DNA of 64,000 nucleotides. Source: Acidimicrobiales bacterium. GTDB lineage: Bacteria > Actinomycetota > Acidimicrobiia > Acidimicrobiales > RAAP-2. The stretch lies in NCBI GenBank assembly GCA_035702745.1, contig DASSZS010000054.1, forward strand, positions 9,656 to 73,655. The letters are read 5' to 3'. The position numbers and the translations under genes were made by a program. The notes under the pieces were generated by a model. The model saw only the letters and a list, made by a program, of their open reading frames with translations. It was not told the origin of the DNA and did not search any database. Of the stretch, positions 18,957 to 42,539 are shown piece after piece. How positions within the stretch are numbered: position 1 is the stretch's first letter; every line of letters begins with the position of its first letter.

Positions 18957-18974
18957 GGTGCTAAGGTACCACGA

Positions 18975-18993
18975 TAGTTACAGGAGGTAACTA
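18975..18993. promoter_or_regulatory. Putative MarR operator TAGTTAC-N5-GTAACTA
   Basis: Perfect AT-rich 7-5-7 palindrome between the divergent -10 elements of marR (18968-18963) and the hydrolase operon (TAGCCT 18995-19000). Confidence 0.7.
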
Positions 18994-19043
18994 ATAGCCT
19001 CCGGCGCCCCGTCCCGACCGGGACGACCAGGAAAGGACAACGC

Positions 19044-22355: not shown

Positions 22356-23333
22356 CTAGGAGTTCATCGCCTTGTGGATGGTGGTGACGATGCGCTCGAC
22401 CGACGGCAGGGCCATGTCCTCGAGCGTGTCGGCCGCCGGCAGCGGGATGTGGGGGGTCGTGATGCGCACGACCGGCCCGTCGAGGTCGTAGAAGGCCTCC
22501 TCGGCCACGATCGAGGCCACTTCCGCCCCCCAGCCGAGGACCCGGGGGTTCTCCTCCACCGTGAAGAGTCGACCGGTGGCCGACGTCTCTCGCAGGATCG
22601 TCTGGGTGTCGAGGGGGATCAGGGAGCGTACGTCGATCACGGTGCAGTCGATGCCGCCGGCCGCGAGCTCCTCGGCCGCCGCCAGCGCGCGCGGCACCAT
22701 GAGACCGAGCGTGGCGATCGTGGCGTGCGCCCCCTGGCGCAGCACCGTCGCCGTGCCGAGCGTGTCGAGGATCTCGCCCTCGGGGACCTCGCCCTTGCTC
22801 GGGTAGAGGGCCTTGGACTCTAGGAAGACGACCGGGTCGTCGTCGCGCACCGCGGCCGCCATCAGGCCGATGACGTCCCGGGGGTTCGAGGGCACGACCA
22901 CCTTCAGTCCGGGGATCATCATCGCCCAGTTCTCGACGCTCTGGGAGTGCTGGGCCCCGAAGCGCAGTCCCCCGCCGTTGCCCGAGCGGATGACCAGCGG
23001 GAAGCTCATCTGCCCGTTGGTCATGTAGCGCGACTTGGCGATCTCGTTGGCGACGATGTCCCAGCACACGGCGAAGAAGTCCGCGAACATGATCTCGGCG
23101 ATCGGCCGCAGGCCGGTCATGGCCGCCCCCATCGCGGCCCCCAGGATGGCCTGTTCGCTGATGGGCGTGTCACGCACCCGCACCGGCCCGAACTCCTCCA
23201 ACAGCCCGACGGTGCCCTTGAACACCCCGCCGGCTGCCGCGACGTCCTCGCCCAGGAAGAGCACCGACTCGTCCCGTCGCATCTCCTGGGCGATGCCACG
23301 GGCAATCGCCTCTCGGTAGGTCAGTTCCGCCAT
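22356..23333 (-). CDS. ThDP-dependent 2-oxoacid/acetoin dehydrogenase E1 beta subunit
   Basis: LGEDV, RDTPISEQAILG, EIMFADF, GAQHSQ, DVRSLIPLD motifs. Confidence 0.93.
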   Translation of the reverse strand: MAELTYREAIARGIAQEMRRDESVLFLGEDVAAAGGVFKGTVGLLEEFGPVRVRDTPISEQAILGAAMGAAMTGLRPIAEIMFADFFAVCWDIVANEIAKSRYMTNGQMSFPLVIRSGNGGGLRFGAQHSQSVENWAMMIPGLKVVVPSNPRDVIGLMAAAVRDDDPVVFLESKALYPSKGEVPEGEILDTLGTATVLRQGAHATIATLGLMVPRALAAAEELAAGGIDCTVIDVRSLIPLDTQTILRETSATGRLFTVEENPRVLGWGAEVASIVAEEAFYDLDGPVVRITTPHIPLPAADTLEDMALPSVERIVTTIHKAMNS

Positions 23334-24334
23334 TCGGCACCTCCGTTGGCCCAGACGTCCTTCATGAGCAAGTCCTCGCCGGGCGCGGCGCCCGCCTTGG
23401 CCGCCTCGGTGGCGGCGTCGACGTCGGCGTCGACGTCGGCCTCGATGCGCGCGAGGGTGGTCTCGTCGACCCCGAGCTCGACGAGTCGGGCCCGGTAGCG
23501 CGAGACCGGGTCGCGCTCGGCCGAGGTCCAGAACGCGACCTCCTCGTCGGGCCGGTACTTGCCGGGATCGGCCCGGGAGTGACCGCCGTGGCGGTAGGTC
23601 TCGGCCTCGATCAGGCTCGGTCCCTCACCGGCGCGGGCCCGCTCGATGGCGGTGCGCGCGACCTCGTAGACGGCGTCGGCGTCGTTGCCGTCAACGATGA
23701 TGGGCTCGAGACCGTAGGCGGCGGCGCGGTCGGCCGCCGGATGGGCCACCGCGGTCACTTCCGAGGTGCGCGTGTACTCCATGTAGAGGTTGTTCTCGCA
23801 GATGAACACGACCGGGAGTTTCCAGATGGCCGCGAAGTTGAGCGCCTCGTGGAAGGCGCCGATATTCACGGTGCCGTCGCCGAAGAAGGCCACCGCCACC
23901 TGGTCCGTCCCGCGGTACTGAGCGCTCCAGGCCGCCCCGCAGGCGATCGGCAGGTGGGCGCCGATGATGGCGTAGCTGCCCATCACCCCGTGCTCGACGC
24001 TGGTGAGGTGCATCGATCCGCCCTTGCCGGCCATGAGGCCGTTGGCCCGGCCCATCAGCTCAGCGAAGACCGGGGTCATGGCCACCCCGCGGGCGAGGGT
24101 GTGGGCGTGGCCCCGGTAGGTCGCGAACGTCCAGTCGTCGGGTCGCATGGCCGCGGCGACCCCGGCGGCGATCGCCTCCTGACCGATCGAGAGGTGGCTC
24201 GTCCCCTTGACGTAGTTCTCCAAGAACAGGTCGTAGGCGCGCGTCTCGAATCGGCGCAGGGCGACCTGGCTGCGGTAGAGCTCGAGTTTGAAGTCCACGT
24301 CGTGGACGGGAGAGGCCTCGGTGGTCGTCATCAT
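23321..24334 (-). CDS. ThDP-dependent 2-oxoacid/acetoin dehydrogenase E1 alpha subunit
   Basis: HLSIGQEA, TYRGH, GKGGSMH, FFGDG...ENN ThDP motif, TYRHGGHS. Confidence 0.93.
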   Translation of the reverse strand: MMTTTEASPVHDVDFKLELYRSQVALRRFETRAYDLFLENYVKGTSHLSIGQEAIAAGVAAAMRPDDWTFATYRGHAHTLARGVAMTPVFAELMGRANGLMAGKGGSMHLTSVEHGVMGSYAIIGAHLPIACGAAWSAQYRGTDQVAVAFFGDGTVNIGAFHEALNFAAIWKLPVVFICENNLYMEYTRTSEVTAVAHPAADRAAAYGLEPIIVDGNDADAVYEVARTAIERARAGEGPSLIEAETYRHGGHSRADPGKYRPDEEVAFWTSAERDPVSRYRARLVELGVDETTLARIEADVDADVDAATEAAKAGAAPGEDLLMKDVWANGGAEWRN

Positions 24335-24339
24335 CCCTC

Positions 24340-25587
24340 CTAGTACTTGTTCGCGATCATGAGTTCCCGGGCCGGGAAGTGGGTCAGGACCGCCGGGCCC
24401 TCGGGGGTGACCACGACCTCCTCCTCGATTCGAGCCGCCGACACCCCGTCGCTGGCCGGGCAGTAGGTCTCGAGAGCGAACACCATCCCGACCTGCAGCT
24501 CTACCGGCTCCGTGAGGCTGTTGAGCCGGCTGATGATGGGGCGCTCGTGCAGGCCGAGCCCGAGGCCGTGGCCGAACTGGAGACCGAAGGCGGCCATCTC
24601 GTCGGCGAAGCCGAACGACGTCGCCTCGGGCCAGGCCCGCGCGATGACGTCGGTCGTGACCCCCGGCTTCACGAGGTCGATGGCGGCATCCATCCACTCG
24701 CGCGCCCTCGCGTAGGCGTCGCGCTGGGGGCCCGTCGAACTGCCCACCGAGAGGGTGCGGTAATAGCAGGTCCGGTAGCCGTTGAAGGAGTGGATGATGT
24801 CGAAGAAGGCCTGATCACCTGGCCGGATGATCCGATCGGTGAAGTTGTGGGGGTGGGGGTTGCACCGTTCGCCCGAGACGGCGTTCACGGCCTCGACCTG
24901 GTCCGAGCCCATCTCGTAGAGGCGACGGTTGACCAGCGCCACCATCTCGTTCTCGCGGACCCCGGGCTTCAGGGCGTCGAAGACGTCCTGGTACACCCCG
25001 TCGACCATGGCGGCCGCCTGAGCGAGCAGGGTGAGTTCGTCGGGGCTCTTGATCTGGCGCGCGTCGAGCATGATCTGCTGAGCGTCGCGAACCTGGACGC
25101 CGGCGCGCTCGAGCTCGAAGAGGAAGGGCAGCTCGACGATGTCGAGGCCCACCGGCTGATCGAGGACCCCAGCGTCAGAGAGGAGGCCCACGATCTCGCG
25201 CACCGCCGACTCGAACAGGCCCGCGGAGGGGGCGATCGCCCCGCGCATCCCGAGCATGCCGGCTCGGCAGTTCTCCTTGGCCAACCACGGAGCGAACAGC
25301 TGGTGGTGGCGCGCGGCCGAGCCGAAGTCCCACAGGATCGGCTCGCCCCCCCGGGGGAGCAGGCAGTAGCGGGTCATCTTGTCGCCGAGCGCCCCACCCA
25401 CCCAGGTCTGGGAGACGTAGCGGATGTTGTAGAAGTCGAAGAGCAGGAGCGCCCCGAGGTCGCTGCGCTCGAGGGCCTCGCGCGCCCGCGCCAATCGGTA
25501 GGCCCGCAGCCGATCGAAGTCCACCCGGGTCTCGAAGTCGACTCCGTGGAACCCCGGCGTGGCCACGACCGGGCCGAACCCCTCCAT
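24340..25587 (-). CDS. M24 (pita-bread fold) hydrolase, creatinase/DddP/DoeA-like N-terminus
   Basis: VDFDRLRAYRL N-domain, IKSPDEL, FFD, GHGLGLGLHE, FALE and RIEE. The second metal Asp position reads GYRTCYYRT. Confidence 0.85.
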   Translation of the reverse strand: MEGFGPVVATPGFHGVDFETRVDFDRLRAYRLARAREALERSDLGALLLFDFYNIRYVSQTWVGGALGDKMTRYCLLPRGGEPILWDFGSAARHHQLFAPWLAKENCRAGMLGMRGAIAPSAGLFESAVREIVGLLSDAGVLDQPVGLDIVELPFLFELERAGVQVRDAQQIMLDARQIKSPDELTLLAQAAAMVDGVYQDVFDALKPGVRENEMVALVNRRLYEMGSDQVEAVNAVSGERCNPHPHNFTDRIIRPGDQAFFDIIHSFNGYRTCYYRTLSVGSSTGPQRDAYARAREWMDAAIDLVKPGVTTDVIARAWPEATSFGFADEMAAFGLQFGHGLGLGLHERPIISRLNSLTEPVELQVGMVFALETYCPASDGVSAARIEEEVVVTPEGPAVLTHFPARELMIANKY

Positions 25588-26519
25588 CAGCGTCCCCCCA
25601 GCCCGTCGTCGACCTCGATGCCCTCGGGCACCATCGTCAGGCCGGCGGCCCGCGCCTCCTCGGCGAGCAAGACGGCGAAATCCTCGCTGGTGTGACCGGC
25701 CCCCACCGCCGCCTGGACGATCTCAGCGCAGACCGCGGCGAGGGGCATCGGCACGTGGTGCTCGCGTGCGGCGGCCAGGCCGAGGTCGAAGTCCTTTCGC
25801 AGGAGCACCGGGGTGAAGGTCGGGGTGAAGTCAAGGTTCACGAAGGCCGGCGTCTTGTAGCGCGAGAAGGTCGAGCCGAGGACCGAGTCGTTGAGGAACG
25901 AGAGCAGCGCGCTGCGCTTGACGCCGCCGCGCTCGGCCAGGACCGTCACCTCGGCCAACGCCTGGGTGACGACACCGAGAATGACGTTGTGGCAGATCTT
26001 GACCAGCCGCGCGGCCTCGCCCTCGCCGACGTAGGTCACGCCGCGACCGATGTCGCGCAGCATCGCCTCCACCTCGTCGAAGGCCGCCCGCTCGCCCGAC
26101 ACGGCCAGGGTGAGGTTGCCGCTGGCCACCACTTTGGGGTTGCCGCTCACCGGGGCGGCGAGGAAGGCGACCCCGCGCGCCGCGCAGGCCGCCCGGACCG
26201 CGGCCGAGGTCTCGGTTGACACGGTCGAGCTGTCCACGACCACCCGCGGCGCGCGTTGCGGGTCAGCGAGCACACCCCCGGGCCCGGTCGTCACCTCGAG
26301 CAGGTCGTCGTTGGCCGAGACCATGACGAAGACCACGTCATGGCCGGCGAGGTCGACCGGCCGGTCGACCACCGAGGCCCCCCGCGCGAGTAGGGCCTCG
26401 GCCTTCGCCCGAGTGCGGTTCGTGGCCGTCACCTCGCGGCCCGCCGCGAGCAGCCGCGTCGCCATGGCCGAGCCCATCCGCCCGCATCCGATCCACCCGA
26501 TTCGCGTCGCCTCGCCCAC
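25587..26519 (-). CDS. Beta-hydroxyacid dehydrogenase family (3-hydroxyisobutyrate dehydrogenase-like) oxidoreductase
   Basis: GWIGCGRMG, NRT, APVSG, catalytic VKICHN, KDFDL motifs. Confidence 0.88.
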   Translation of the reverse strand: MGEATRIGWIGCGRMGSAMATRLLAAGREVTATNRTRAKAEALLARGASVVDRPVDLAGHDVVFVMVSANDDLLEVTTGPGGVLADPQRAPRVVVDSSTVSTETSAAVRAACAARGVAFLAAPVSGNPKVVASGNLTLAVSGERAAFDEVEAMLRDIGRGVTYVGEGEAARLVKICHNVILGVVTQALAEVTVLAERGGVKRSALLSFLNDSVLGSTFSRYKTPAFVNLDFTPTFTPVLLRKDFDLGLAAAREHHVPMPLAAVCAEIVQAAVGAGHTSEDFAVLLAEEARAAGLTMVPEGIEVDDGLGGR

Positions 26520-26533
26520 CGCGCCTCCTCCGG

Positions 26534-27274
26534 TCAACCCGTGACCGTCTCTTCGATCGACCCCCCGAGGTACAGGGCTCCGATCTCGGGATGGTGGAGC
26601 ACCTCGTGGCCGCTGCCGAGCAACCGCACCCGGCCGTTCTCCATCACCACGCCCTGATCGGCGAGGCGCAGGGCCTGTCGAGCGTTCTGCTCGACCAGCA
26701 CGATGGTGCGACCGGCCTCGTTCATCCCCCGAACGGTCTGGAACATCTGGCGCAGGGTCTTGGGGTCGAGGCCCATCGAGGGCTCGTCCAGCACGACGAG
26801 CGTGGGGTCGAGCATGAGGCCCCGGGCGAACTCCACGAGGCGCTGCTGGCCGCCCGAGAGCGCCCCGGCCTTGTCGTCAGCGCGCTCGGACACGATGGGG
26901 AAGGCCGCAGCCACCCGCTCGTAGCGCTCGGCGATGACCCGCTTGTCGCGCACGAGGTACGCCCCTAGCTCGACGTTCTGGCGCACCGTCATCTCGCGAA
27001 AGAGGCTGTGGTTCTGGGGTACCTGGACGATCCCGCGCTCCAGGATCTGACGGGGACTGCGCCCGACGAGGTTCTCGCCCTGGAAGGTGATCGACCCGAG
27101 GCGGGGACGCACCAGGCCACTCACCGTCTTGAGAAGCGTCGACTTGCCCGAGCCGTTGGGGCCGACGATGCAGGTGATGCCCCCGGCGGGCACGTCGAAA
27201 CTGACACCCTTCAAGACGTCGCCCCCGCCGTAGCCGGCGACCACCCCGTCGAAGGAGAGGACCGTCTCAGCCAC
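26534..27274 (-). CDS. livF: Liv/HAAT-type ABC transporter ATPase
   Basis: GPNGSGKST, LSGGQQ, LDEPSMGL, LVEQN. Confidence 0.9.
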   Translation of the reverse strand: MAETVLSFDGVVAGYGGGDVLKGVSFDVPAGGITCIVGPNGSGKSTLLKTVSGLVRPRLGSITFQGENLVGRSPRQILERGIVQVPQNHSLFREMTVRQNVELGAYLVRDKRVIAERYERVAAAFPIVSERADDKAGALSGGQQRLVEFARGLMLDPTLVVLDEPSMGLDPKTLRQMFQTVRGMNEAGRTIVLVEQNARQALRLADQGVVMENGRVRLLGSGHEVLHHPEIGALYLGGSIEETVTG

Positions 27275-28037
27275 CGGCCACCTCCTCGAACTCGTCGTCG
27301 CCGCCGCCTAAGTACGCGTCGAGCACCTTGGGGTCGCGGCGAACCTCCTCGGGGGTCCCCGAGACGAGGTTGCAGCCCTGGTGCATCACGGTGACCCGAT
27401 CGCACAGGCTCATGACGAACTCCATGTTGTGCTCCACGATGAGGAACGTCTTGCCCTGGGCGTTGAGGGCCCGAATCTTCTCGGCGATGCGATTGATGAG
27501 CGTGAGGTTCACGCCCCCCGCCGGCTCGTCGAGGAGGATGACCTGGGGATCGGCGACCAGCACGTAGGCGAGCTCGAGCAGTTTGCGTTGGCCGTAGGAG
27601 AGGGCGCCGGCCTGCAGCTCGGCCAGTTCCGCGATGCCGACGAAGTCGAGCAGCTCCAGGGCGGTCGCCACCTCCTCGGCCGAGGACTTGGACCGGGTGA
27701 GTCCGCGCAGCCACCCCTCCTTGCGCTGGGTCGCCACCAGCATGTTCTCGAGCACGCTCAGGCGCTCGAAGATCCGCGTGAGCTGGAAGGTCCGCCCGAT
27801 CCCTCGGGCGAAGACCTGGTTCGGCCTGAGCCCCGTAATGTCCTCGTCGCGGAAGCGCACCGCCCCCTGGTCGGCCCGGACGTAGCCCGTCACGACGTTG
27901 AACAGGGTCGTCTTGCCCGAGCCGTTGGGCCCGATGAGCCCGGCGATGGACCCCTCGTCGACCTCGAGGGAGCAAGCCTGGAGGGCCTGGACTCCGCCGA
28001 AGGCGCGGCTGACCCCCGTGACCGACAGGATCGACAT
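27267..28037 (-). CDS. livG: Liv/HAAT-type ABC transporter ATPase
   Basis: GPNGSGKTT, GIGRTFQ, LSYGQRK, LDEPAGG, VEHNM. Confidence 0.9.
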   Translation of the reverse strand: MSILSVTGVSRAFGGVQALQACSLEVDEGSIAGLIGPNGSGKTTLFNVVTGYVRADQGAVRFRDEDITGLRPNQVFARGIGRTFQLTRIFERLSVLENMLVATQRKEGWLRGLTRSKSSAEEVATALELLDFVGIAELAELQAGALSYGQRKLLELAYVLVADPQVILLDEPAGGVNLTLINRIAEKIRALNAQGKTFLIVEHNMEFVMSLCDRVTVMHQGCNLVSGTPEEVRRDPKVLDAYLGGGDDEFEEVAGG

Positions 28038-29041
28038 CAGGCCCCGCTCCCGGCGAGGGTGGTCTCGGCCGCGGCGACGGCGGCCTTCTCGCGCGCGGAA
28101 CGGCGCGTCACCCGGTCGCGGACGAAGACGACGATCCCCTGGGGCATGAAGAGGATGACGAGCAAGAAGAGCGCCCCGAAGAGGATCAGGTAGAGCGAGC
28201 TGTTGGAGAACGAGAGAGTGAGCCACTGCTGGAACGACTCGAGGATGAGCGCACCGAGCAGTGGCCCGAACAGCGTGCCGAGGCCCCCGAGGAAGGCCAT
28301 GAGGGCGATCGACACGTCAAAGAGCGGGTCGAAGACGAACTGGGGGAAGATCTGGCCGACGAACATCGCGTAGAGCGCTCCCGCCATGCCGATCGTGAAC
28401 TGCGCGAGGGCGAAGCCGGTCAGTTTCACCGCGGTGGTGTGCACGCCGAGACCGAGCGCCCGGTCCTCGTCGTCACGAATCGCCAGCATCTGTAAACCGA
28501 AGCGCGAGCGGCGCACGATGGCCGAGAGGACCGTCGCGAAGATCACCAGACCGAGGGCCACGTAGTAGAAGGGCACGTTGTAGTAGCTCTCGTTCCAACT
28601 GATGAACGGCAGGATGAGCCCCGACGTGCTCCCGGTGAAGCCGACGTTGATGGCGGTCAGCTGGAAGACGAAGAAGATCGCGATGGTTATCACGACGAAT
28701 GTGTGGCGACGCACTCGCAGGGCGATGGCCCCGATCGGCAGCGCCACGAGGGTAGCGAGGAGACCGCCGAGGGGGGCCAGCCAGAACATCGAGGCGCCCG
28801 GGGCCATATTCGCGTGGATCGACACCAGAGCCATGGTGTAGGCGCCCACCCCGTACGAGACAGCCGAGCCCAGCGCGATGTAGCCCGTGTAGCCCGAGAA
28901 CATGTTCCACGAGGTCGCACAGGCCATATAGATGAGGGTGAAGACGCCGATGGTGGTGTAGGCCGGGTTCGTCACCACCACCGGGAAGAGGGCGAGGGCG
29001 ACGAGCCCGAGCGCCCACGCGGCGCGCGACCAGTGGCGCAT
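28037..29041 (-). CDS. livM: Liv/HAAT-type ABC permease
   Basis: SWNMFSGYTG, AIRDDEDRA, LGGLGTLFGPLLGA. Confidence 0.9.
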   Translation of the reverse strand: MRHWSRAAWALGLVALALFPVVVTNPAYTTIGVFTLIYMACATSWNMFSGYTGYIALGSAVSYGVGAYTMALVSIHANMAPGASMFWLAPLGGLLATLVALPIGAIALRVRRHTFVVITIAIFFVFQLTAINVGFTGSTSGLILPFISWNESYYNVPFYYVALGLVIFATVLSAIVRRSRFGLQMLAIRDDEDRALGLGVHTTAVKLTGFALAQFTIGMAGALYAMFVGQIFPQFVFDPLFDVSIALMAFLGGLGTLFGPLLGALILESFQQWLTLSFSNSSLYLILFGALFLLVILFMPQGIVVFVRDRVTRRSAREKAAVAAAETTLAGSGA

Positions 29042-29925: not shown

Positions 29926-29928
29926 CGA

Positions 29929-31179: not shown

Positions 31180-31281
31180 TGATTCCCCCCGAATCAATCT
31201 GTGTGACGACGTCGGTGGCTCCCCACTTTGCGGTCCACCCGCGTCGTTCGCCGGGACGGCGATGGGGTAACGCTAACGACG

Positions 31282-31311
31282 GCCCTCGGGCTAATCAAGG
31301 CGCCCGAGGGC
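31282..31311. promoter_or_regulatory. 10-N10-10 inverted repeat in the divergent promoter region of the catabolic island
   Basis: GCCCTCGGGC-TAATCAAGGC-GCCCGAGGGC. Confidence 0.5.
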
Positions 31312-31320
31312 TCTCAGCCG

Positions 31321-31333
31321 TGAAAAGATTTCA
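31321..31333. promoter_or_regulatory. AT-rich palindrome TGAAA-N3-TTTCA, candidate operator
   Basis: Perfect 5-3-5 inverted repeat that is AT-rich in a very GC-rich background. It lies between the two divergent -10 elements (TAGCGT on the minus strand, TACCAT on the plus strand). Confidence 0.5.
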
Positions 31334-31404
31334 AACGCGCGGCCCTTCTCCTGCCCTCGAGGACGGCGTTACCATCTCCAGCCATCCGGGCCGGTGGGGG
31401 GACT

Positions 31405-32505
31405 GTGACCGACGCGCTTCTGGAGACCGCCATTGCCAACTGGCAGCCCCGCTTCGTGGCGAACGGGGTCGACGCAAGTGACTATGTGCACATAGCGGCG
31501 CGACTCGAGCGCTGGGAGGACTGGTGCGCCGCGTGGTGTGAGGCCGGCGCCGAGCACGAGTCACTCGGGGTCGCCGCCCGCGCTGCGGGGAACTCACGCA
31601 GCGCCGGCGAACACCTCGCTCGCGCCGCCGTCTACTTCCACTTCGCGAAGTTCCTGTTCGTCCACGACCTCGACCAGGCCCGCGCCGCCCACGTCCGCGC
31701 CGTCGCCTCCCTGAGCGACGCCGCAGCCCATCTCGCACCCCCCGCGGCCCGACTCGAGATCCCCTTCGAGGGAACACGGCTCGTCGCTGTTTTGCGCACT
31801 CCCGACTCGGCGACGCCCCAGCCGACGGTCGTCCTGATCCCGGGGCTCGACTCGGCGAAAGAGGAGTTCCGCGAGGTCGAGCGGGCCTTCCTAGAGCGAG
31901 GCCTGGCCACCGTGTCGCTCGAGGGTCCGGGCCAGGGCGAGGTCGAGTGGGACCTGCCGATCCGTCCGGACTGGGAGGTCGTGGGCGAGGCCGCGCTGGG
32001 CTTCCTGCGGAGCCGGCCCGAGGTCGATCCGAACCGGATCGGCCTCTGGGGCGTATCCCTCGGGGGCTACTACGCCGCGCGGATTGCGGCGGCCGACCTC
32101 GGGGTGCGCGCCACGGTGGCCCTCTCGGGGCCCTACGACTTCGCGGCCGCCTGGGAGTCGCTCAACCCCCTCACCCGGCGGGCCTTCGTCGTGCGCTCCC
32201 ACAGTGCCGACGAGGCCGAGGCGACGCGACGAGCCGCGGAGCTCACCCTGGCCGGTCGCGCGGCGTCGATCACGGGTCCTCTCCTGGTCATCCAGGGCCG
32301 ACGGGATCGGCTCTTCTCGTGGCGCGAGGGCGAACGGCTCGTCGCCGAGGCGGCGGGTCCCGCGGAGTTGCTCGTCCTTGACGAGGGTAACCACGGTTGC
32401 GCGAACGTCACCTACCGACACCGGCCCTACGCTGCGGACTGGCTGGCTCGCCACCTGGGCGTGGAGCCTCGAACGACGTCTACCCCCGGAGACCCACATG
32501 CCTAA
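31405..32505 (+). CDS. Alpha/beta hydrolase, 2,6-dihydroxypseudooxynicotine (DHPON) hydrolase / FrsA / Ayg1 family
   Basis: PGLDSAKEE, LERGLAT-x2-EGPGQGE, GVSLGGYYA (Ser), QGRRD (Asp), GNHGCAN (His). These match the Arthrobacter DHPON hydrolase motifs as I recall them. Confidence 0.8.
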   Translation: MTDALLETAIANWQPRFVANGVDASDYVHIAARLERWEDWCAAWCEAGAEHESLGVAARAAGNSRSAGEHLARAAVYFHFAKFLFVHDLDQARAAHVRAVASLSDAAAHLAPPAARLEIPFEGTRLVAVLRTPDSATPQPTVVLIPGLDSAKEEFREVERAFLERGLATVSLEGPGQGEVEWDLPIRPDWEVVGEAALGFLRSRPEVDPNRIGLWGVSLGGYYAARIAAADLGVRATVALSGPYDFAAAWESLNPLTRRAFVVRSHSADEAEATRRAAELTLAGRAASITGPLLVIQGRRDRLFSWREGERLVAEAAGPAELLVLDEGNHGCANVTYRHRPYAADWLARHLGVEPRTTSTPGDPHA

Positions 32506-33844
32506 GGTCACGATGCCCCAGTTGGGAGAGACGGTGGCCGAGGGGACCGTCACCAAGTGGTTCAAGGCGGTCGGCGAGACGGTCGACAAGGGGGAGGCGC
32601 TCTTCGAGGTCTCCACGGACAAGGTCGACACCGAGATCCCCTCACCCGCCGGCGGAACCCTGACGGCCATCCTTGTCCCGGCCGGTCAGACCGTCGACGT
32701 CGGCACGACCCTCGGGCTCATCGACGAAGAACCCGAGGCCGTCACCGTTCGGGAGCAACCGGGCGCGCGAAACGACGCCGAGGCCCGCGCTGGCGATCCC
32801 CCCCTCCCCGACTCGACGAGGGGCCGTGGCGACGGCACCACCGCCGAGCGGCTCTCACCGGTGGTGCGCCGACTCCTCGCCGAGCACCACCTGGAACCGA
32901 GTGATGTCGTGGGGACGGGTCCGGCGGGGCGTATCACCCGCGAGGACGTCCTCGCCCACGTGGCGGCCCCCCTCGCGAGCACGCCGGCGACCGGCGAGGA
33001 CGCCGCCGTCTCACCGGTGGTGCGCCGACTCCTGCGCGAGCACGGTCTGAGCGTCGGCGACGTCGTCGGGACCGGCCCGGGTGGACGCGTCCAGCGTCGC
33101 GACGTGGAATCCGCTCTCACCAGGAGTTCGGGGTCGGACGAGGTCGTGCCGTTCTCGACGATTCGGCGCCTCACCGCCGAACACATGGTGCGCTCCAAGG
33201 CGACCTCAGCTCACACCCTGATGGTGCGCGAGATTGACTACGAGAACGTCGAGCGAGTCCGCCGGCGTCACGGGGCCTCATTCAAAGAGCGCGAGGGGTA
33301 CTCACTCACCTATCTGCCCTTTAACGCCGTGGCCGCGGTGCAGGCCCTCGGCGAGTTCCCACACCTCAACGCGTCCGTCGGCGACGACGCCCTCATCGTG
33401 CACGGGTCGGTCAATCTGGGCGTCGCGGTGGACCTCGACGGTCAGGGCCTGGTCGTACCCGTCGTGCGCGACGCGGCGGCTCTCTCTCTGGGCGAGATGG
33501 CGGCGCGCGTGCGCGCCCTCGCCACGGGCGCCCGCTCGAAGCGCCTCACCGTCGACGACATGTCCCACGGGACGTTCACGATCACCAACCCCGGCCCCTA
33601 CGGGACCCTGATGACCGGGGCGATCATCAACCAGCCCCAGGTGGCGATCCTCGCGACCGACGGGGTCTCACGACGGCCCGTCGTCGTCACCGGAGCTGAC
33701 GGCGAGGAGATGATCGCGATCCACTCGATCGGACTGGTCGCGCTGACCTTCGACCACCGGGTCATCGACGGGGCGTACGCCGCGCGGTTCCTCGCGCGCC
33801 TCGCCGATATCCTCGAGACCCGCGACTGGGCCCGCGAGCTCTGA
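32498..33844 (+). CDS. Dihydrolipoamide acyltransferase (E2) with one lipoyl domain and two E1/E3-binding domains
   Basis: MPQLGETVAEG, EVSTDKV (lipoyl Lys), two SPVVRRLL-x-EH...GTGP-x-GR domains, GTFTITNPG, TFDHRVIDGA. Confidence 0.92.
   Translation: MPKVTMPQLGETVAEGTVTKWFKAVGETVDKGEALFEVSTDKVDTEIPSPAGGTLTAILVPAGQTVDVGTTLGLIDEEPEAVTVREQPGARNDAEARAGDPPLPDSTRGRGDGTTAERLSPVVRRLLAEHHLEPSDVVGTGPAGRITREDVLAHVAAPLASTPATGEDAAVSPVVRRLLREHGLSVGDVVGTGPGGRVQRRDVESALTRSSGSDEVVPFSTIRRLTAEHMVRSKATSAHTLMVREIDYENVERVRRRHGASFKEREGYSLTYLPFNAVAAVQALGEFPHLNASVGDDALIVHGSVNLGVAVDLDGQGLVVPVVRDAAALSLGEMAARVRALATGARSKRLTVDDMSHGTFTITNPGPYGTLMTGAIINQPQVAILATDGVSRRPVVVTGADGEEMIAIHSIGLVALTFDHRVIDGAYAARFLARLADILETRDWAREL
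32853..33033 (+). repeat. Intragenic duplication of the E2 peripheral-subunit-binding domain
   Basis: An identical 25-mer, TCTCACCGGTGGTGCGCCGACTCCT, occurs at 32853-32877 and 33009-33033. Confidence 0.9.
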
Positions 33845-33847
33845 GCC

Positions 33848-34741
33848 ATGGTCGACCGGTTGCGCCTCGGCACCTTCACCCCGTCAGTCCTGCTCGAGGT
33901 GGCGCGCCGCAGCGGCTCGCTCGATCGGGCCGACCTCGAGGTCGACGAGGTCGCGGTCGCGTCGTCCCCGGCCCAGTTCCAGTCCCTGCTCGCCGGAGAC
34001 CTCGACGTGGTGCTCACCAGTCCCGACAACGTCCTGGCGTACCACTTCCTCTCGCGAAACCCGCTCGGTCAGCGCATTCCCCTCGTCGTGGAGGCCGCGA
34101 TCGACCGTGGACTGGGTCTGTCGCTCTGGGCCCGTGCGGGCCTCGGGGATCCGAGACCCGGGGCTCGCCTCGCCGTCGACGTGGCGACCTCGGGATTCGC
34201 GTTCGTCGGCTACGCCCTGCTCGCCCGGCGGGGCCTCGGCCTCGACGACGTCGAGGTGGTGGCCCTGGGGTCGACCCCCCGGCGCGCCGCGGCCCTCGCC
34301 GAGGGGGGGTGTGACCTCACGGTGCTGAACGCGGGCAACCAGTTCCCGGCGCGGGCCGCCGGTGCGACCCTCCTCGGTGAGGCGTGCGACCTCGGTCCGT
34401 ACCTAGGCACCGTCGTCGCGGGTCTCGCCTCACCGTCCGCCGATCGTCACCGCCTGGCCGACACCCTGGTCGAGGTGGCTCAGGCGATCGCTGAGGGTCG
34501 CCACGACGACACCGTGCGCGAGGCCGCCGCCGACCGACTGGGACTCAGCGGCCCCGACGCCTCGAGTTTCGCCGGACTGCTGCGCGATCCTGAGCGAGGA
34601 CTCGTGCCGTCGGGATGCGTCGACCGCCGCTCCATTCGCACCCTGATCGAGCTGAGGCGCGTGGCCGAACCGGACCCCGCCCTCGACGACGTCGAGGGCG
34701 GCCTCGCAGAGCTGGTGGCCCCCGGCCACCTCATCGACTAA
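33848..34741 (+). CDS. Type-II periplasmic-binding-protein-fold protein (NMT1/THI5/SsuA-like) without a signal peptide
   Basis: SSPAQFQSLLAGDLDVVLTSPDN, AVDVATSGFAF, LGSTPRRAAAL motifs. The N-terminus (MVDRLRLGTF) has no hydrophobic stretch. Confidence 0.75.
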   Translation: MVDRLRLGTFTPSVLLEVARRSGSLDRADLEVDEVAVASSPAQFQSLLAGDLDVVLTSPDNVLAYHFLSRNPLGQRIPLVVEAAIDRGLGLSLWARAGLGDPRPGARLAVDVATSGFAFVGYALLARRGLGLDDVEVVALGSTPRRAAALAEGGCDLTVLNAGNQFPARAAGATLLGEACDLGPYLGTVVAGLASPSADRHRLADTLVEVAQAIAEGRHDDTVREAAADRLGLSGPDASSFAGLLRDPERGLVPSGCVDRRSIRTLIELRRVAEPDPALDDVEGGLAELVAPGHLID

Positions 34742-34750
34742 GGAGACCCG

Positions 34751-36256
34751 ATGCGCGACACCCGTCTGAGCGACGACCTACTCGCGGCGCGACCGGTGTG
34801 GGGGTCGCTCATCGCTGGCCGGTTCCGAGACCACGCCGGGGCCGACCTGTTCAGCGTCCACGAGTCGGCGACGGGCGAGACCCTCGCCCACGTCGTCGCG
34901 GCGTCGGACACTGAGGTCGCCGAGGCGGTCGCGGACAGCCGGCGCGCCTACGACGAGACCTGGCGTCGACTCTCCCCCCGGGAACGCGCGGGCTACATGC
35001 GCGAGGTGGCCGCACGCTTCCGGGCCCACGCCGAGGAGCTCGGAGAGCTGTGCGCACGCGAGGTGGGCAAGCCCCGACGCGACGCCCTGCGGGTGGACGT
35101 GGTCTCGAGCCACACGAGCTTCGACTACTACGCCGGCATCGCCGACACGGTCCCGGGCCACATCGTGGACCAGGGCCCGATCGAGGCCCGGGTCACCTAC
35201 GAGCCCTACGGCGTCGTAGCGGCGATCCTCCCCTTCAACTGGCCCCCCATCCACTTCTCTAAGAAGTGCGCCCCGGCCCTCGCGGTCGGCAACACGGTGG
35301 TGCTCAAGCCCGGCGAGCAAGCGCCCCTGACCGTGCTGCGCCTCGCCGAGCTCGCCAACGAGGTCCTGCCCCCGGGCGTCATCAACGTCGTGAGTGGGAT
35401 CGGCGCGGGCCCGGCGCTGGTGGGCCACCCGCGCGTCGAGCGGATCTCCTTCACGGGCTCCACGCTGACCGGTCGTCGAGTGCTCGAGGCCGCCGCCAAG
35501 AACCTCACCTACGCGACGATGGAACTCGGCGGCAAGAACGCCCTGCTCGTGCTCGACGACGCCGACCTCGAGCAGGCCGTCACGGTGGCGATTGAAGGGA
35601 TGTTCTACAACCAGGGCGAGGCCTGCACCTCCACCTCGCGCATCGTGATCGAAGAGCCCCTCTACGACGAGTTCGCCCGACGCTTCGTCGAGGCCACGGC
35701 GCGCCTCGTGGTCGGTGACCCGCTGGACGGGGCCACCGACATCGGCCCCATGGTCGACGCCCGCCAACGCGATCGGGTGAACCACTACATCACGGTCGGT
35801 CTCGACGAGGGCGCCACGGTCCTCTACCGGGGCGACGTCCCCCACGAGCGTCCCCTCAGCGAGGGCTACTTCGTCACCCCGGTCGTCTTCGGCGACGTGA
35901 CGGCGTCGATGACGATCGCGCGCGACGAGATCTTCGGTCCGGTAGCGAGCCTCATGCGCGCGGCCGACGACGCGCAGGCCGTGGCCATCGCCAACGACTC
36001 CGACTATGGACTCACCGCGGCGATCTGCACCCGCGACGAATCCCGCGCCGCCCGGCTGGCCGAACGGCTCGAGGTGGGCATGGTCTTCGTGAACAACTAC
36101 ACCCGGCGGACCTACATCGGCTCACCCTTCGGCGGTGTGAAGGCCAGCGGCTTCGGGCGCGAGTACGCGCCCGAGACGTTGCACGAGTTCGTTCGCGCGA
36201 AGAACGTCCGGTTCCCCTCGGGCCGCGGACCGGTACCCGGCTGGCCGCCCCGATGA
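34751..36256 (+). CDS. Aldehyde dehydrogenase
   Basis: PFNWP, KPGEQAP, FTGST, ELGGKN, NQGEAC, EIFGPV, PFGGVKASG. Confidence 0.93.
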   Translation: MRDTRLSDDLLAARPVWGSLIAGRFRDHAGADLFSVHESATGETLAHVVAASDTEVAEAVADSRRAYDETWRRLSPRERAGYMREVAARFRAHAEELGELCAREVGKPRRDALRVDVVSSHTSFDYYAGIADTVPGHIVDQGPIEARVTYEPYGVVAAILPFNWPPIHFSKKCAPALAVGNTVVLKPGEQAPLTVLRLAELANEVLPPGVINVVSGIGAGPALVGHPRVERISFTGSTLTGRRVLEAAAKNLTYATMELGGKNALLVLDDADLEQAVTVAIEGMFYNQGEACTSTSRIVIEEPLYDEFARRFVEATARLVVGDPLDGATDIGPMVDARQRDRVNHYITVGLDEGATVLYRGDVPHERPLSEGYFVTPVVFGDVTASMTIARDEIFGPVASLMRAADDAQAVAIANDSDYGLTAAICTRDESRAARLAERLEVGMVFVNNYTRRTYIGSPFGGVKASGFGREYAPETLHEFVRAKNVRFPSGRGPVPGWPPR

Positions 36257-36262
36257 GGGGTA

Positions 36263-36288
36263 ATCGGCCCTCGGTAGTCTGGGCCGAT
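36263..36288. promoter_or_regulatory. Putative TetR autoregulatory operator ATCGGCCC-N10-GGGCCGAT
   Basis: 8-bp inverted repeat flanking the TAGTCT -10 and overlapping the tetR ATG. Confidence 0.6.
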
Positions 36289-36895
36289 GACGCGTGACCG
36301 CATCCTGGAGGCGGCGGCCCACGAGATCGAGCGCAACGGCCTGACCCAGTTCCGAGTCAAGCGCGTGGCCATGGAGGCCGGCATATCGGTCGCCCTGCTC
36401 TACAGCTACTTCAGCGATCGCGAGGACCTCATCGCCTCGGCGATCGTCCACCGGTTCCGGGCGGTTCTGCTGGACCTGGCCGAGACCTTCACCCGCCCGA
36501 TGCTCGATGTGCAGACCCCCGCGGAGCTACGCGCGGCCATCCGAACCGTGATCGTCGAGGCGCAGGTGCCCGCTCGTACCGAGGCCCGGATCCAGCGCAT
36601 CGAGTCGATGTCCTTCGCCCGCCACAACCCGACCGCCTCTCAGGGCATCGCCGAGGCGAAGAAGGAGACGGCTCAGTTCATCGTCGCCCGGGTCCAGCCC
36701 CTCGAGGAGAGGGGCCTCCTCGCCGAGGGGATGAGCGCGGTCGCCTTCGCGCGCATCTGGTACGCACTCTTCTTCGGTCAGATCGAGCTCGAGGGGGAGC
36801 ACGCGCTTTCGGTGGGTGACGAGGAGTGGCTGACGGCTCTCACCGTCCTCGCTGACGGAGCGATCCGGCGCGAGTCGAGCTCAACCCCTCGCTGA
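36287..36895 (+). CDS. TetR/AcrR-family regulator
   Basis: N-terminal HTH: RDRILEAA...VAMEAGISVALLYSYFSDREDL. Confidence 0.92.
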   Translation: MTRDRILEAAAHEIERNGLTQFRVKRVAMEAGISVALLYSYFSDREDLIASAIVHRFRAVLLDLAETFTRPMLDVQTPAELRAAIRTVIVEAQVPARTEARIQRIESMSFARHNPTASQGIAEAKKETAQFIVARVQPLEERGLLAEGMSAVAFARIWYALFFGQIELEGEHALSVGDEEWLTALTVLADGAIRRESSSTPR

Positions 36896-38960: not shown

Positions 38961-38977
38961 CCCCCTACGCTCGGGGG

Positions 38978-42517: not shown

Positions 42518-42539
42518 GGTGCCCAACCCTACGCCCGCT

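Follow-up and report, generated by a model that had tools for sequence, protein, structure and literature searches.

A conserved divergent gene set around a cysteine-bearing M24 metalloenzyme forms a predicted catabolic pathway in Acidimicrobiales

Fourteen genes are arranged in two divergent arms in the window, i.e. the whole stretch of 64,000 nucleotides of Acidimicrobiales DNA analysed here (~70% GC). The order, strands and tight junctions of all 14 open reading frames match those described in a previous sequence-only reading, as does the placement of the E1 and E2 genes on opposite arms, and Pfam and NCBIfam domains agree with the labels given there. The features are listed below.

22356..23333, minus strand: E1beta (Transket_pyr and Transketolase_C)
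23321..24334, minus strand: E1alpha (E1_dh, E 2e-77)
24340..25587, minus strand: M24 (Peptidase_M24, E 2.5e-37)
25587..26537, minus strand: beta-hydroxyacid dehydrogenase (NAD_binding_2 and NAD_binding_11)
26534..27274, minus strand: livF, LivF-type ATPase (ABC_tran, E 6e-32)
27267..28037, minus strand: livG, LivG-type ATPase (ABC_tran and BCA_ABC_TP_C)
28037..29041, minus strand: livM, LivM-type permease (BPD_transp_2, E 1.4e-29), start picked from the GC3 profile
29041..29925, minus strand: livH, LivH-type permease (BPD_transp_2, E 4e-30)
29929..31179, minus strand: SBP (Peripla_BP_6, E 2.6e-48)
31180..31404, no strand: divergent intergenic control region (conserved blocks)
31405..32505, plus strand: FrsA/DHPON-type alpha/beta hydrolase (PF06500)
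32498..33844, plus strand: E2 dihydrolipoyl acyltransferase (Biotin_lipoyl, two E3_binding, 2-oxoacid_dh)
33848..34741, plus strand: PBP-fold protein (Foldseek of the AF2 model; no Pfam match)
34751..36256, plus strand: NAD(P)-dependent ALDH (Aldedh, E 1.5e-151)
36287..36895, plus strand: TetR-family repressor (TetR_N, E 4.7e-10)
36901..37512, minus strand: conserved hypothetical protein, convergent on TetR (no Pfam match)

GC3 is 0.85-0.96 across all 14 reading frames. In the minus arm, the SBP and livH genes lie 3 nt apart, 1-nt overlaps occur at livH/livM, livM/livG and dehydrogenase/M24, and the overlap is 8 nt at livG/livF and 4 nt at livF/dehydrogenase, given the TTG start at 26537. A gap of 5 nt separates M24 from E1alpha, which overlaps E1beta by 13 nt. 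In the plus arm, the hydrolase and E2 genes overlap by 8 nt and the later gaps are 3, 9 and 30 nt; the hydrolase is translationally coupled to E2, as the dehydrogenase is to M24. The set comprises a full HAAT ABC importer and complete E1alpha, E1beta and E2 components, with E3 absent. The term 'island' used previously is loose; no tRNA, integrase or compositional break was found in the window.

Twelve of the 14 genes recur in identical divergent layout in Acidimicrobiia-type MAGs, with SBP-livHMGF-dehydrogenase-M24-E1alpha-E1beta on one arm and hydrolase-E2-TetR on the other. Since this layout is shared by 10 or more independent MAG loci, the gene set is more than a chance assembly. A palindrome, TGAAAnnnTTTCA (TGAAAAGATTTCA), is located between the two arms at 31321..31333. 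It is the single match in the 64-kb window, against 0.03 expected by chance, and 11 of 12 related TetR-type loci carry the motif in their divergent intergenic region, with seven matches elsewhere in 1.42 Mb of other loci. Because it is unique in the window and lies between the arms both here and in these relatives, it is likely a candidate operator common to both arms and bound by TetR. Across eight loci, the intergenic region is otherwise only 52% identical and contains conserved blocks, including TTGAnn-17-TAGCGT-like promoter elements. The earlier proposal that the two arms form one unit is thus borne out by the conserved divergent synteny and the conserved palindrome. TetR orthologues keep the same position in eight loci. 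The family of the hypothetical protein at 36901..37512 also adjoins TetR in loci L006, L010 and L012, and this protein may be associated with the gene set.

The SBP is of the secreted type, with an N-terminal signal-like hydrophobic stretch, and belongs to the HAAT (Liv-type) importer. Other possible starts of its gene lie at 31197 or 31170. Its best NCBIfam matches, UrtA and LivJ, are weak; the PDB entries closest to it bind amino acids or amides (E 2e-16), and it is 63-96% identical among syntenic loci. Transporters (HAAT, MFS, NitT/TauT, CUT2 sugar type) and regulators (TetR, LacI in 42 loci, GntR, XRE-cupin, ROK) both vary by lineage and so do not reveal any single chemical class.

Among 82 loci, the dehydrogenase gene lies upstream of M24 in 73, and this pair, not the hydrolase, is the invariant core. 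Partners are E1 (53 loci), E2 (42), ALDH (43-44), a liv transporter (42), the hydrolase (25-30) and the PBP-fold protein (25-31). Single-operon versions exist as FrsA>HIB>M24>ALDH, M24>ALDH>E1>E2 and M24>VOC>E1>E2. Roseobacter plasmids carry SDR-M24-E1alpha-E1beta-E2-SSADH-E2-LpdA, and the hydrolase gene was not found in any Roseobacter plasmid locus examined. In Haloferax, the genes next to an M24 of the same Cys type encode an NAD(P) oxidoreductase and a TPP enzyme.

The M24 protein, named 'Xaa-Pro peptidase' in public annotations, carries a prolidase-like GHGLGLxLHE motif and retains the metal ligands D263, H340, E373 and E388. Its second Asp is replaced by Cys274, at which alignment to prolidase 1pv9 places D220; prolidases and DddP, in contrast, have Asp at this position. 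The cysteine is present in 81/81 homologues, and the motif extends to Roseobacter, Paenarthrobacter and Haloferax homologues. Across Actinomycetota, M24 is 73-98% identical; at 73-85% identity, its conservation far exceeds that of its neighbours. Those M24 enzymes characterised as non-peptidases, namely creatinase, ectoine hydrolase and DddP, all use small zwitterionic carboxylates. Although DddP is the best NCBIfam match, it scores 96 bits against a cut-off of 600. DddP has Asp307 as a ligand and Tyr366/Asp377 as catalytic residues (PMC4108388); in M24 the Asp307 equivalent is Cys, which breaks the ligand set, and Tyr366/Asp377 have no match by offset from the His ligand. Assignments as DddP, ectoine hydrolase or creatinase were rejected. 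In line with the earlier remark that several M24 proteins are not peptidases, M24 is an atypical 'pita-bread' metalloenzyme and probably a non-peptidase.

The dehydrogenase belongs to the beta-hydroxyacid family (HIBADH/tartronate-semialdehyde-reductase-like), which also includes GHB/SSA reductases. It stays under every NCBIfam equivalog cut-off (best TSR, 165 vs 341 bits), its best PDB match is 2-(hydroxymethyl)glutarate dehydrogenase, and its VK..HN motif, including the catalytic Lys, is kept in 62 homologues. E1alpha is a TPP-binding protein of PDH/acetoin type (PDH_E1_alph_y 336 bits, under the 394 cut-off), closest in structure to human PDH E1alpha and with the GDG...NN TPP motif; E1beta exceeds the NF006667 cut-off (348 vs 321 bits). 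E2 has one lipoyl domain, two E3-binding domains and a catalytic domain, with the TDK lipoyl-lysine and DHRxxDG motifs. Domains and motifs therefore confirm complete TPP/lipoyl components. In most other Actinomycetota, E1/E2 are only ~35% identical to these and fused (type B), and could serve a different step.

The hydrolase aligns full-length to 2jbw (E 1.4e-38) with a conserved GxSxG Ser, Asp and His triad, in keeping with the relationship to DHPON hydrolase proposed previously. GLDS.KEE, GPGQGE and GVSLGG are invariant family-wide; the protein could equally be an esterase, a lactonase or a thioesterase. The ALDH is BADH/aminobutyraldehyde-dehydrogenase-like, below all equivalog cut-offs, and its orthologues (61-64% identity) adjoin the cluster in Mycolicibacterium and Wenjunlia. 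The PBP-fold protein has no Pfam match and no signal peptide in its sequence; its AF2 model (pLDDT 95.5) has SsuA, ThiY/Thi5, DszB and TauA as top Foldseek matches, and it is predicted to be a cytoplasmic SsuA/THI5-class protein. Most Acidimicrobiia-type loci lack it, and MFS-PBPf-ALDH also occurs alone. The PBP-fold and ALDH genes are an accessory two-gene insert, a strain-specific add-on.

A search for a described pathway carrying this gene set matched none, in line with the sequence-only reading. With moderate confidence, the genes are read from their sequences as one catabolic regulon under TetR repression, serving a small polar hydroxylated, probably N-containing carboxylate, rather than as a peptidase or BCAA cluster. 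The CUT2, LacI and ROK sugar types found elsewhere favour a small polar hydroxylated compound, and an amide-, amidine- or ureide-like substrate (hydroxy-amide or amidine) is the best reading. The imported ligand would relieve TetR repression. The dehydrogenase and M24 would then act back to back, in an order guessed from gene order only: a hydroxyl would be oxidised and a C-N bond (less likely C-S) cut beside a metal-chelating carboxylate or alpha-hydroxy-amide. The hydrolase would take off a second acyl/ester group or split a beta-dicarbonyl, the resulting 2-oxo acid or acyloin would be converted to acyl-CoA by E1/E2 with a housekeeping E3, and any aldehyde fragment would be oxidised by ALDH. 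No aminotransferase or deaminase is conserved among the loci, although one would be expected were an amino acid set free.

The substrate was previously proposed to be an acylated aromatic or N-heterocycle. In a scenario close to that proposal, an N-heterocycle or alkaloid side-chain pathway, the hydrolase would cut an acyl group from a hydroxylated pyridine/pyrimidine-like ring, and the freed amino- or hydroxy-acid would pass through dehydrogenase, M24, ALDH and E1/E2, by analogy with lower nicotine catabolism in Arthrobacter. Among known enzymes, DHPON hydrolase 2jbw has this hydrolase as its closest relative in the set, and suitable partners exist in some relatives only: mycobacterial clusters with Mo-hydroxylase, FAD amine oxidase, CN-hydrolase and SSADH-like ALDH, cytosine/guanine-deaminase-like amidohydrolases in one operon with HIB-M24 (5 loci), and a single M. 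vanbaalenii locus adjoining a urease operon. However, Mo-hydroxylase is found in 14/82 loci and amine oxidase in 6/82, the hydrolase is missing in ~2/3 of M24 loci as well as in those Roseobacter plasmid loci, the window has no oxygenase, Mo-hydroxylase or ring-cleavage gene, and all Acidimicrobiia-type loci likewise lack a hydroxylase, oxidase or ring-cleavage gene. Nothing in the window thus suggests an aromatic or heteroaromatic substrate; this part of the proposal is only partly supported, and such a pathway is unlikely.

There is a similarly small chance of an acetoin-type pathway of acyloin cleavage, in which the dehydrogenase would turn a polyol-like compound into an alpha-hydroxyketone, E1/E2 would yield acyl-CoA and an aldehyde for ALDH, and M24 would perform a preparatory deamidation or elimination. 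E1alpha is indeed nearest to the PDH/acetoin 'y-type', but acetoin-type and 2-oxoacid-type E1 cannot be told apart by any sequence feature. In Streptomyces and Roseobacter, the genes of E1beta and E2 flank that of ALDH, but the core 12-gene set is devoid of ALDH. In several loci, SDRs (best match acetoin reductase or 2,3-butanediol dehydrogenase) take the place of the HIBADH-type enzyme, and CUT2 transporters and LacI/ROK regulators are found in many, whereas the window has an amino-acid/amide-type transporter and TetR; the role of M24 is also unaccounted for.

An orphan pantothenate/pantoate (vitamin B5) pathway is a speculative candidate that we consider improbable. M24 or the hydrolase would be the pantothenase, the dehydrogenase a pantoate 4-dehydrogenase and ALDH an aldopantoate dehydrogenase; a malate-type dehydrogenase would yield 2-oxoisovalerate and E1/E2 isobutyryl-CoA. 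To our knowledge, this route (classical Pseudomonas work) is the sole described sequence that calls for a 2-oxoacid dehydrogenase and a decarboxylating malate-type dehydrogenase together with an amide hydrolase, a 4-hydroxy-acid alcohol dehydrogenase and an SSADH-like ALDH. An SSADH-like ALDH recurs around M24, the dehydrogenase family includes the GHB/SSA reductases, and malic-enzyme-like genes near M24 (4 loci and R. opacus), PanE/ketopantoate-reductase-like genes (3 loci) and methylmalonyl-CoA-epimerase-like VOC genes (24 loci) were found. The malic-enzyme and PanE associations are nevertheless few, the window is devoid of malic-type or isopropylmalate-type dehydrogenase, its ALDH is not SSADH-like, E1 is nearer PDH than BCKDH, no beta-alanine-handling gene is conserved, and the PBP-fold protein, Mo-hydroxylase and similar partners are unaccounted for. 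The classical pantothenase, reported with an acyl-enzyme and not a metal, also counts against this route. In its favour, no protein had yet been assigned to pantothenase activity as of 2023 (PMC10393543).

Ordinary BCAA/peptide use, with a LivFGHMJ importer, M24 as dipeptidase, E1/E2 as BCKDH, the dehydrogenase as HIBADH and ALDH as MMSDH, fits the family names and the public M24 annotation at face value. It is very unlikely, as no protein reaches the HIBADH, MMSDH or BCKDH equivalog cut-off, acyl-CoA dehydrogenase, enoyl-CoA hydratase and aminotransferase are absent from the set, the modified M24 metal site is invariant over 81 sequences with identity far exceeding that of its neighbours, Roseobacter versions have sugar-type transporters and the set includes a DHPON-type hydrolase. 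Organosulfonate (DHPS/sulfolactate-type) use, in which a YihU-like dehydrogenase and GabD-like ALDH would give a 3-sulfo-2-hydroxy acid and a DddP-like M24 would eliminate sulfite to supply a 2-oxo acid to PDH-like E1/E2, is suggested by the profile match of M24 to that C-S lyase, a 91-bit dehydrogenase match to sulfolactaldehyde reductase, the SsuA/TauA resemblance of the PBP-fold protein and the NitT/TauT-type ABC and LLM monooxygenase with flavin reductase adjoining some clusters, but is extremely improbable since these matches all fall far below family cut-offs, M24 lacks the DddP residues, and sulfite exporter and sulfite dehydrogenase are not conserved.

Overall, the 14 genes probably form one conserved, repressor-controlled breakdown pathway, which hundreds of Actinobacteria and, for some of its genes, marine Alphaproteobacteria carry, and whose central enzyme, the Cys-bearing M24, is an unusual member of the M24 "peptidase" family.

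The 14 reading frames proposed in the sequence-only reading have a GC3 of 0.85-0.96 in a window of about 70% GC, which is the signature of real actinobacterial genes, and each of the labels given to them was matched by Pfam and NCBIfam. They form two divergent arms, organized as follows.

22356-36895, both strands: the whole cluster
Minus arm, in transcription order: Peripla_BP_6 solute-binding protein (SBP), LivH, LivM, LivG, LivF, beta-hydroxyacid dehydrogenase, M24 protein, E1alpha, E1beta
25587-26537, minus strand: the dehydrogenase
24340-25587, minus strand: the M24 protein
Plus arm: FrsA-like alpha/beta hydrolase (DHPON type), E2, a protein without Pfam match, aldehyde dehydrogenase (ALDH), TetR regulator
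36287-36895, plus strand: the TetR regulator

Three over-long ORFs were shortened to GC3-supported starts before the junctions were measured. The tight packing claimed for the genes was confirmed, with overlaps of 1-13 nt or gaps of 3-9 nt and a single exception of 30 nt before tetR. Unrelated genes set sharp limits to the cluster: a DUF6069-like gene lies to its left, and an ORF without assignment and an inorganic pyrophosphatase gene lie to its right. It had been called an island, but in the sense of a mobile element this is rejected, as neither a tRNA nor an integrase is present and the composition shows no break. Four neighboring features were recorded on either side.

18492-21786: MarR regulator divergent from an operon of dienelactone hydrolase, a DUF6295 protein (91 aa) and an MFS transporter (576 aa), just left of the cluster
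36901-37512, minus strand: 203-aa ORF with strong GC3 and no Pfam match, convergent on tetR with a 5-nt gap
38124-39835, plus strand: 3-hydroxyacyl-CoA dehydrogenase, then PurU (formyl-THF deformylase with ACT domain), 1.2 kb right of the cluster
40545-42526, minus strand: kynureninase (Aminotran_5 and KYNU_C) adjoining tryptophan 2,3-dioxygenase, a kynurenine-pathway pair without an adjacent formamidase gene

The MarR unit forms the same flank in the closest metagenome-assembled genome (MAG; L003). The 203-aa ORF may belong to the regulon, the same family adjoining the TetR gene in three related loci (L006, L010 and L012). Neither the 3-hydroxyacyl-CoA dehydrogenase nor PurU is kept with the cluster in the loci compared, and the kynurenine-pathway pair is by synteny unrelated to it.

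Judged by profile scores, each part of the cluster belongs to a known superfamily and none reaches the equivalog level of a characterized family except generic ones (E1beta subfamily, HAAT transporter and TetR). The M24 protein represents a distinct subfamily with a modified site that probably retains metal binding. Its best NCBIfam profile is DddP (NF043017) with 95.9 bits for a cut-off of 600, and the ectoine hydrolase profile TIGR02993 gives 64.9 bits for a cut-off of 613. The Peptidase_M24 pita-bread domain is present and four of the five prolidase-type ligands (D, D, H, E, E) are kept. In the alignment to Pyrococcus furiosus prolidase these are D263, H340, E373 and E388, the second Asp position being occupied by Cys274. 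This cysteine is invariant in 81 of 81 M24 sequences, as are 194 of the 415 positions. It is Cys274, together with scores far below the cut-offs, that argues for a separate subfamily, which also carries a prolidase-like GHGLGLxLHE motif.

The two-domain pita-bread fold is shared with DddP, DoeA/EutD and creatinase. DddP structures are the only ones to align over the full length (4s01, E = 2e-17), and DoeA and creatinase align more weakly. The six metal ligands of DddP are Asp295, Asp297, Asp307, His371, Glu406 and Glu421, with an Asp where the M24 protein has Cys274 (PMC4108388); Tyr366 and Asp377 are catalytic positions. The residue replaced by the cysteine is Asp307, and the positions of Tyr366 and Asp377, mapped by offset only, are occupied by Gly (His-5) and Leu (His+6). 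The C-terminal domain is nearest to prolidase/aminopeptidase P (M24B; 5cdl, E = 9e-24), with which it shares the GHGxGLxxHE motif. However, the N-terminal domain has no match in prolidases, and the D-to-C change and the extreme conservation in a catabolic operon setting distinguish the protein from these peptidases. Like DoeA/EutD, the M24 relatives are encoded in a small-molecule catabolic operon beside an SSADH-like ALDH, but neither DoeB (deacetylase) nor DoeD (aminotransferase) occurs among the conserved neighbor families. In the ectoine system the gene of DoeA adjoins that of DoeC. In contrast to the non-peptidase members DddP, DoeA and creatinase, the M24 protein is consistently accompanied by a dehydrogenase and a TPP enzyme. 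Membership of the DddP, ectoine hydrolase or creatinase families is ruled out by the scores and the ligand change.

The other genes code for an importer and a set of catabolic enzymes. The importer is a complete HAAT-family system (LivFGHMJ type) with a Peripla_BP_6 SBP, two BPD_transp_2 permeases and two ATPases, one of which has a BCA C-terminal motif. The dehydrogenase contains NAD_binding_2 and NAD_binding_11 domains (6PGDH type) and conserves the catalytic Lys/Asn motif VK..HN. It stays below the equivalog cut-offs for HIBADH (141/292 bits), TSR (165/341), LtnD (120/350) and YihU (91/348), and its nearest structures are 2-(hydroxymethyl)glutarate dehydrogenase and glyoxylate/succinic-semialdehyde/GHB reductases. 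E1alpha matches E1_dh (E = 2e-77), carries the TPP motif GDG(X)~25NN as FFGDGTVNIG...ICENNLY and is nearest to PDH E1alpha (PDH_E1_alph_y, 336 bits, under the cut-off of 394). E1beta combines Transket_pyr and Transketolase_C and passes the cut-off of the generic E1beta subfamily model only. E2 has one Biotin_lipoyl, two E3_binding and one 2-oxoacid_dh domain, with STDKVD at the lipoyl-lysine and FDHRVIDG, and falls under all equivalog cut-offs. This organization resembles AcoABC[L] and PDH-type complexes in the separate E1alpha (TPP motif) and E1beta and in an E2 with lipoyl, E3-binding and DHRxxDG catalytic domains. It also resembles AcoABC[L] in that an acetoin-reductase-like SDR and an ALDH share the operon in the cluster's relatives. 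Unlike in these complexes, E1 and E2 are encoded on opposite arms, E1 follows the M24 gene, no E3 is present and every NCBIfam equivalog cut-off is missed except the generic E1beta one. The search for a dedicated E3 (dihydrolipoyl dehydrogenase) covered the 14 genes and their immediate flanks; the Roseobacter version of the cluster carries lpdA.

The hydrolase matches PF06500 (E = 6e-16) and its best structure by far is 2jbw (E = 1.4e-38, residues 9-350 versus 26-363), the DHPON hydrolase of the pAO1 nicotine pathway of Arthrobacter nicotinovorans, to which it aligns in full length. The Ser-Asp-His triad and its flanking motifs are kept: GVSLGG, GRRDRL and GNHGC align with the triad positions of that enzyme and do not vary among 25 homologues. 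FrsA itself is an esterase. For the plus-arm protein without Pfam match, the PBP fold assigned from sequence was supported by an AlphaFold model (pLDDT 95.5) that matches SsuA, ThiY/Thi5, TauA and DszB; since it has no signal peptide it is cytoplasmic. The ALDH of the window is BADH-like, and the ALDH commonest beside M24 elsewhere is SSADH-like (555-582 bits, cut-off 646).

The gene set is also found co-localized in other genomes, its dispersal having been named beforehand as grounds for giving up the proposal of a common pathway. Public data contain at least 120 clusters of M24 relatives at 81% identity or more. When a single genome was scanned for each GTDB species, at least 588 relatives were confirmed, of which the best 80 loci were analyzed. 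Two metagenomic contigs, whose M24 is 82-85% identical, have the hydrolase, E2 and TetR genes transcribed to the left and SBP, livHMGF, dehydrogenase, M24, E1alpha and E1beta to the right. Roughly twelve Acidimicrobiia-type MAGs retain a 12-gene core, with identities of 57-98% (tblastn with the 14 window proteins, best 80 of at least 588). Among these MAGs, within the same best 80 of at least 588, the PBP-fold protein and ALDH are confined to the closest relative (L003) and one further locus (L008), and are therefore an inserted accessory pair. The trio of MFS transporter, PBP-fold protein and ALDH is found alone elsewhere.

Neighbor families were obtained by clustering the GC3-filtered ORFs of 82 loci, the genomic ones being the best 80 of at least 588, and this scope applies to all the counts that follow. 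The dehydrogenase-M24 pair is almost universal, its order is constant and the two genes usually overlap. Frequent partners are E1 (53 loci), ALDH (43-44), E2 and the Liv-type transporter (42 each), and LacI is as frequent (42). The PBP-fold protein (25-31), the DHPON-type hydrolase (25-30), a Glyoxalase_4/VOC protein resembling methylmalonyl-CoA epimerase (24) and GntR-FCD regulators (22) come next. Rarer are Mo-hydroxylase (14), MFS (11), XRE-cupin (9), CMD (8) and FAD amine oxidase (6), and rarest a cytosine/guanine-deaminase-like amidohydrolase (5), malic-enzyme-like (4) and PanE-like (3) proteins. In some loci operons of hydrolase, dehydrogenase, M24 and ALDH, of M24, ALDH, E1 and E2, or of M24, VOC, E1 and E2 occur, indicating that the member genes work together. 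The E1/E2 component is of two types. Separate subunits, 74-87% identical to those of the window, are found in the Acidimicrobiia-type MAGs, a few Streptomycetaceae and a Nocardioidaceae MAG, the last two with the order dehydrogenase-M24-E1alpha-E1beta-ALDH-E2. Most of the remaining Actinomycetota among the best 80 of at least 588 loci have a fused alpha-beta E1 that is only about 35% identical.

Some loci contain further genes. In three of them (L001, L004 and L005, about 14-19 kb) E1beta is directly followed by a GntR-FCD regulator, a transketolase with its N and C halves encoded separately, another dehydrogenase of the HIBADH type and an enoyl-CoA hydratase, a block absent from the window. 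Three Mycobacterium/Mycolicibacterium loci (L084, L088 and L089, about 1-10 kb) share a recurrent block beside the genes for the PBP-fold protein, LacI, dehydrogenase and M24. It consists of a Mo-hydroxylase, a DHPON-type hydrolase, an FAD amine oxidase, two proteins with LVIVD repeats and an ABC system of the NitT/TauT type whose binding protein is NMT1-like; L088 lacks the M24 gene. In Mycolicibacterium vanbaalenii (L083, 1210-7512) a complete urease operon (ureAB, ureC, ureG, ureD, ureE and ureF), headed by its own Peripla_BP_6 protein, is located 1 kb from the PBPf-MFS-ALDH-liv-dehydrogenase-M24 cluster and about 1.4 kb from the LacI gene in front of it, in this species only.

Homologues on plasmids, retrieved by protein search, fall into three groups. 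In Roseobacters (Phaeobacter, Tritonibacter and Marinovum) the M24 protein is 62-64% identical and is encoded in an operon SDR-M24-E1alpha-E1beta-lipoyl-E2-SSADH-E2cat-LpdA, which adjoins a CUT2 sugar-type ABC system and, in Marinovum, also a ROK regulator. On two of these plasmids (L090 and L094) E2 is split into lipoyl-domain and catalytic-domain proteins with the SSADH gene in between, and the operon is headed by a 'solute-binding' protein of 580-610 aa. In Paenarthrobacter and Rhodococcus the M24 protein is 56% identical and its neighbors include fused E1, E2, VOC, amidase, HAAT transporter, RidA, and flavin reductase or malic enzyme. One such Paenarthrobacter plasmid of 42 kb also carries a Pycsar-type anti-phage pair (cyclase and effector) and a zeta-toxin gene (L095, 14635-15964). 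In haloarchaea the identity drops to about 35%, and on Haloferax volcanii pHV4 the neighboring genes encode a TPP protein of the ALS type, an NAD(P) oxidoreductase and hydantoinase A/B. The motif GYR[TS]CYYRT is kept by all plasmid and haloarchaeal M24 homologues found. As it persists across all three groups, the dehydrogenase, the Cys-type M24 and the TPP enzyme are the deepest conserved unit.

That both arms form one unit, as first proposed, is borne out by the divergent layout kept in relatives and by a palindrome conserved between the arms. When the divergent intergenic regions were aligned (mean identity 52%), conserved promoter-like blocks emerged together with the palindrome TGAAAnnnTTTCA, which has a single match in the 64-kb window (31321-31333; 0.03 expected by chance). 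Of 12 TetR-type loci, 11 carry it in the corresponding region between the arms, as against 7 matches in 1.42 Mb of other loci. With a TetR_N HTH protein present, and its candidate operator conserved in orthologous loci and unique in the window, there is good indirect evidence that one TetR would control both arms through this predicted operator. A scan for sigma-70 consensus promoters found no match, as expected for an actinobacterium of 70% GC. Rfam gave no riboswitch or other RNA clue to the ligand at E <= 1 in the 21-38 kb part of the window, and nothing except a tRNA in seven related loci.

The cluster thus comprises an importer and enzymes that, by family, would be able to oxidize an alcohol, hydrolyze or eliminate at a metal center, hydrolyze at a serine and convert a 2-oxo acid or acyloin to acyl-CoA. 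Proposals for the substrate draw on family-level analogies and sparse accessory genes. We would give an even chance to a general scheme, with its presumed order of steps, in which the substrate is a hydroxylated carboxylate, small and polar, that contains an amide- or amidine-type bond. It is favored because the transporter is of the amino-acid/amide class, M24 is coupled to a hydroxy-acid dehydrogenase, the ALDHs that recur belong to omega-oxo-acid or amino-aldehyde types and, to our knowledge, every characterized non-peptidase M24 acts on small zwitterions of this kind.

Cleavage of an acetoin-like acyloin is kept alive as an alternative by the sugar-type transporters and regulators of other loci and by the ALDH gene embedded elsewhere between E1 and E2. 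The degradation of pantothenate or pantoate, with the M24 protein or the DHPON-type hydrolase as pantothenase, is the most concrete candidate, albeit an improbable one. The enzymes of classical pantothenate degradation (EC 3.5.1.22, 1.1.1.106, 1.2.1.33 and 1.1.1.84) are orphans. Its reaction types (amide hydrolase, 4-hydroxy-acid dehydrogenase, semialdehyde dehydrogenase, decarboxylating malate-type dehydrogenase and 2-oxoacid dehydrogenase) correspond, by chemical logic only, to recurrent families. The SSADH-like ALDH, the malic-enzyme-like genes, E1/E2 and the VOC protein that resembles an epimerase suggest a series from alcohol through aldehyde, malate-type acid and 2-oxo acid to acyl-CoA, which is the one in this gene-less pathway; the decarboxylating dehydrogenase is absent from the window. 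The pantothenase protein was still unidentified in 2023, and the pathway offers no gene sequences for comparison (PMC10393543).

The acylated aromatic or N-heterocycle of the sequence-only reading finds some support outside the window, in mycobacterial super-clusters that add a Mo-hydroxylase, an FAD amine oxidase, a CN-hydrolase and an SSADH-like ALDH around the hydrolase, as in the nicotine cluster, and none inside it. Nicotine/ketone dehydrogenase, 6-hydroxynicotine oxidase and dihydroxypyridine hydroxylase are all absent from the window, and we know of no M24, HIBADH-type or E1/E2 genes in the nicotine pathway. Three further candidates were considered, of which the last two are rejected. 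A valine/BCAA catabolic cluster, which would comprise BCKDH, acyl-CoA dehydrogenase, enoyl-CoA hydratase, HIBCH, HIBADH and CoA-acylating MMSDH, is improbable in view of the missing acyl-CoA dehydrogenase and hydratase and of the ALDH score (249 bits versus 448 for MMSDH). Urea release has an anecdotal link, as no urease is seen in M. agri and two other Mycobacterium loci, nor among the families that three or more of the 82 loci (best 80 of at least 588) share within 10 kb of M24. Sulfonamide degradation was considered since the Paenarthrobacter plasmids with the 56% identical homologue come from sulfonamide degraders, but no link is seen, the sad genes being on other replicons and the heterocyclic moieties accumulating as dead ends.

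The earlier statement that the gene set fits no known pathway stands: a full-text literature search found none for the gene combination, for DHPON hydrolase with M24, HIBADH and acetoin dehydrogenase, or for pantothenate catabolic enzymes. The Cys-variant M24 (GYR[TS]CYYRT), its obligate dehydrogenase partner and a TPP enzyme might define, with a likelihood that we place slightly short of even, a previously undescribed cross-phylum pathway with a new non-peptidase M24 activity, the pantothenate/pantoate gene set being its most concrete version. Its range covers Actinomycetota, Roseobacter plasmids and, remotely, haloarchaea. The cluster itself would be a repressor-controlled pair of catabolic operons built around a TPP/lipoyl dehydrogenase, with a possibly new M24 activity at its center.

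If this reading is true, a well-delimited pathway whose substrate nobody has named is present in at least 588 species-level genomes. As the family of its key enzyme is routinely annotated as 'Xaa-Pro peptidase', the M24 annotation would probably be wrong in hundreds of genomes. Culturable carriers exist, among them Mycolicibacterium vanbaalenii, several strains of Streptomyces (one being Streptomyces sp. YIM 121038), Phaeobacter inhibens P92, Tritonibacter mobilis F1926 and Marinovum algicola DG898. The identity of the ligand would extend the short list of non-peptidase M24 chemistries (creatinase, ectoine hydrolase and DddP), would explain the recruitment of a dedicated PDH-like E1/E2 and might supply an orphan pathway, for instance vitamin B5 degradation, with its genes.
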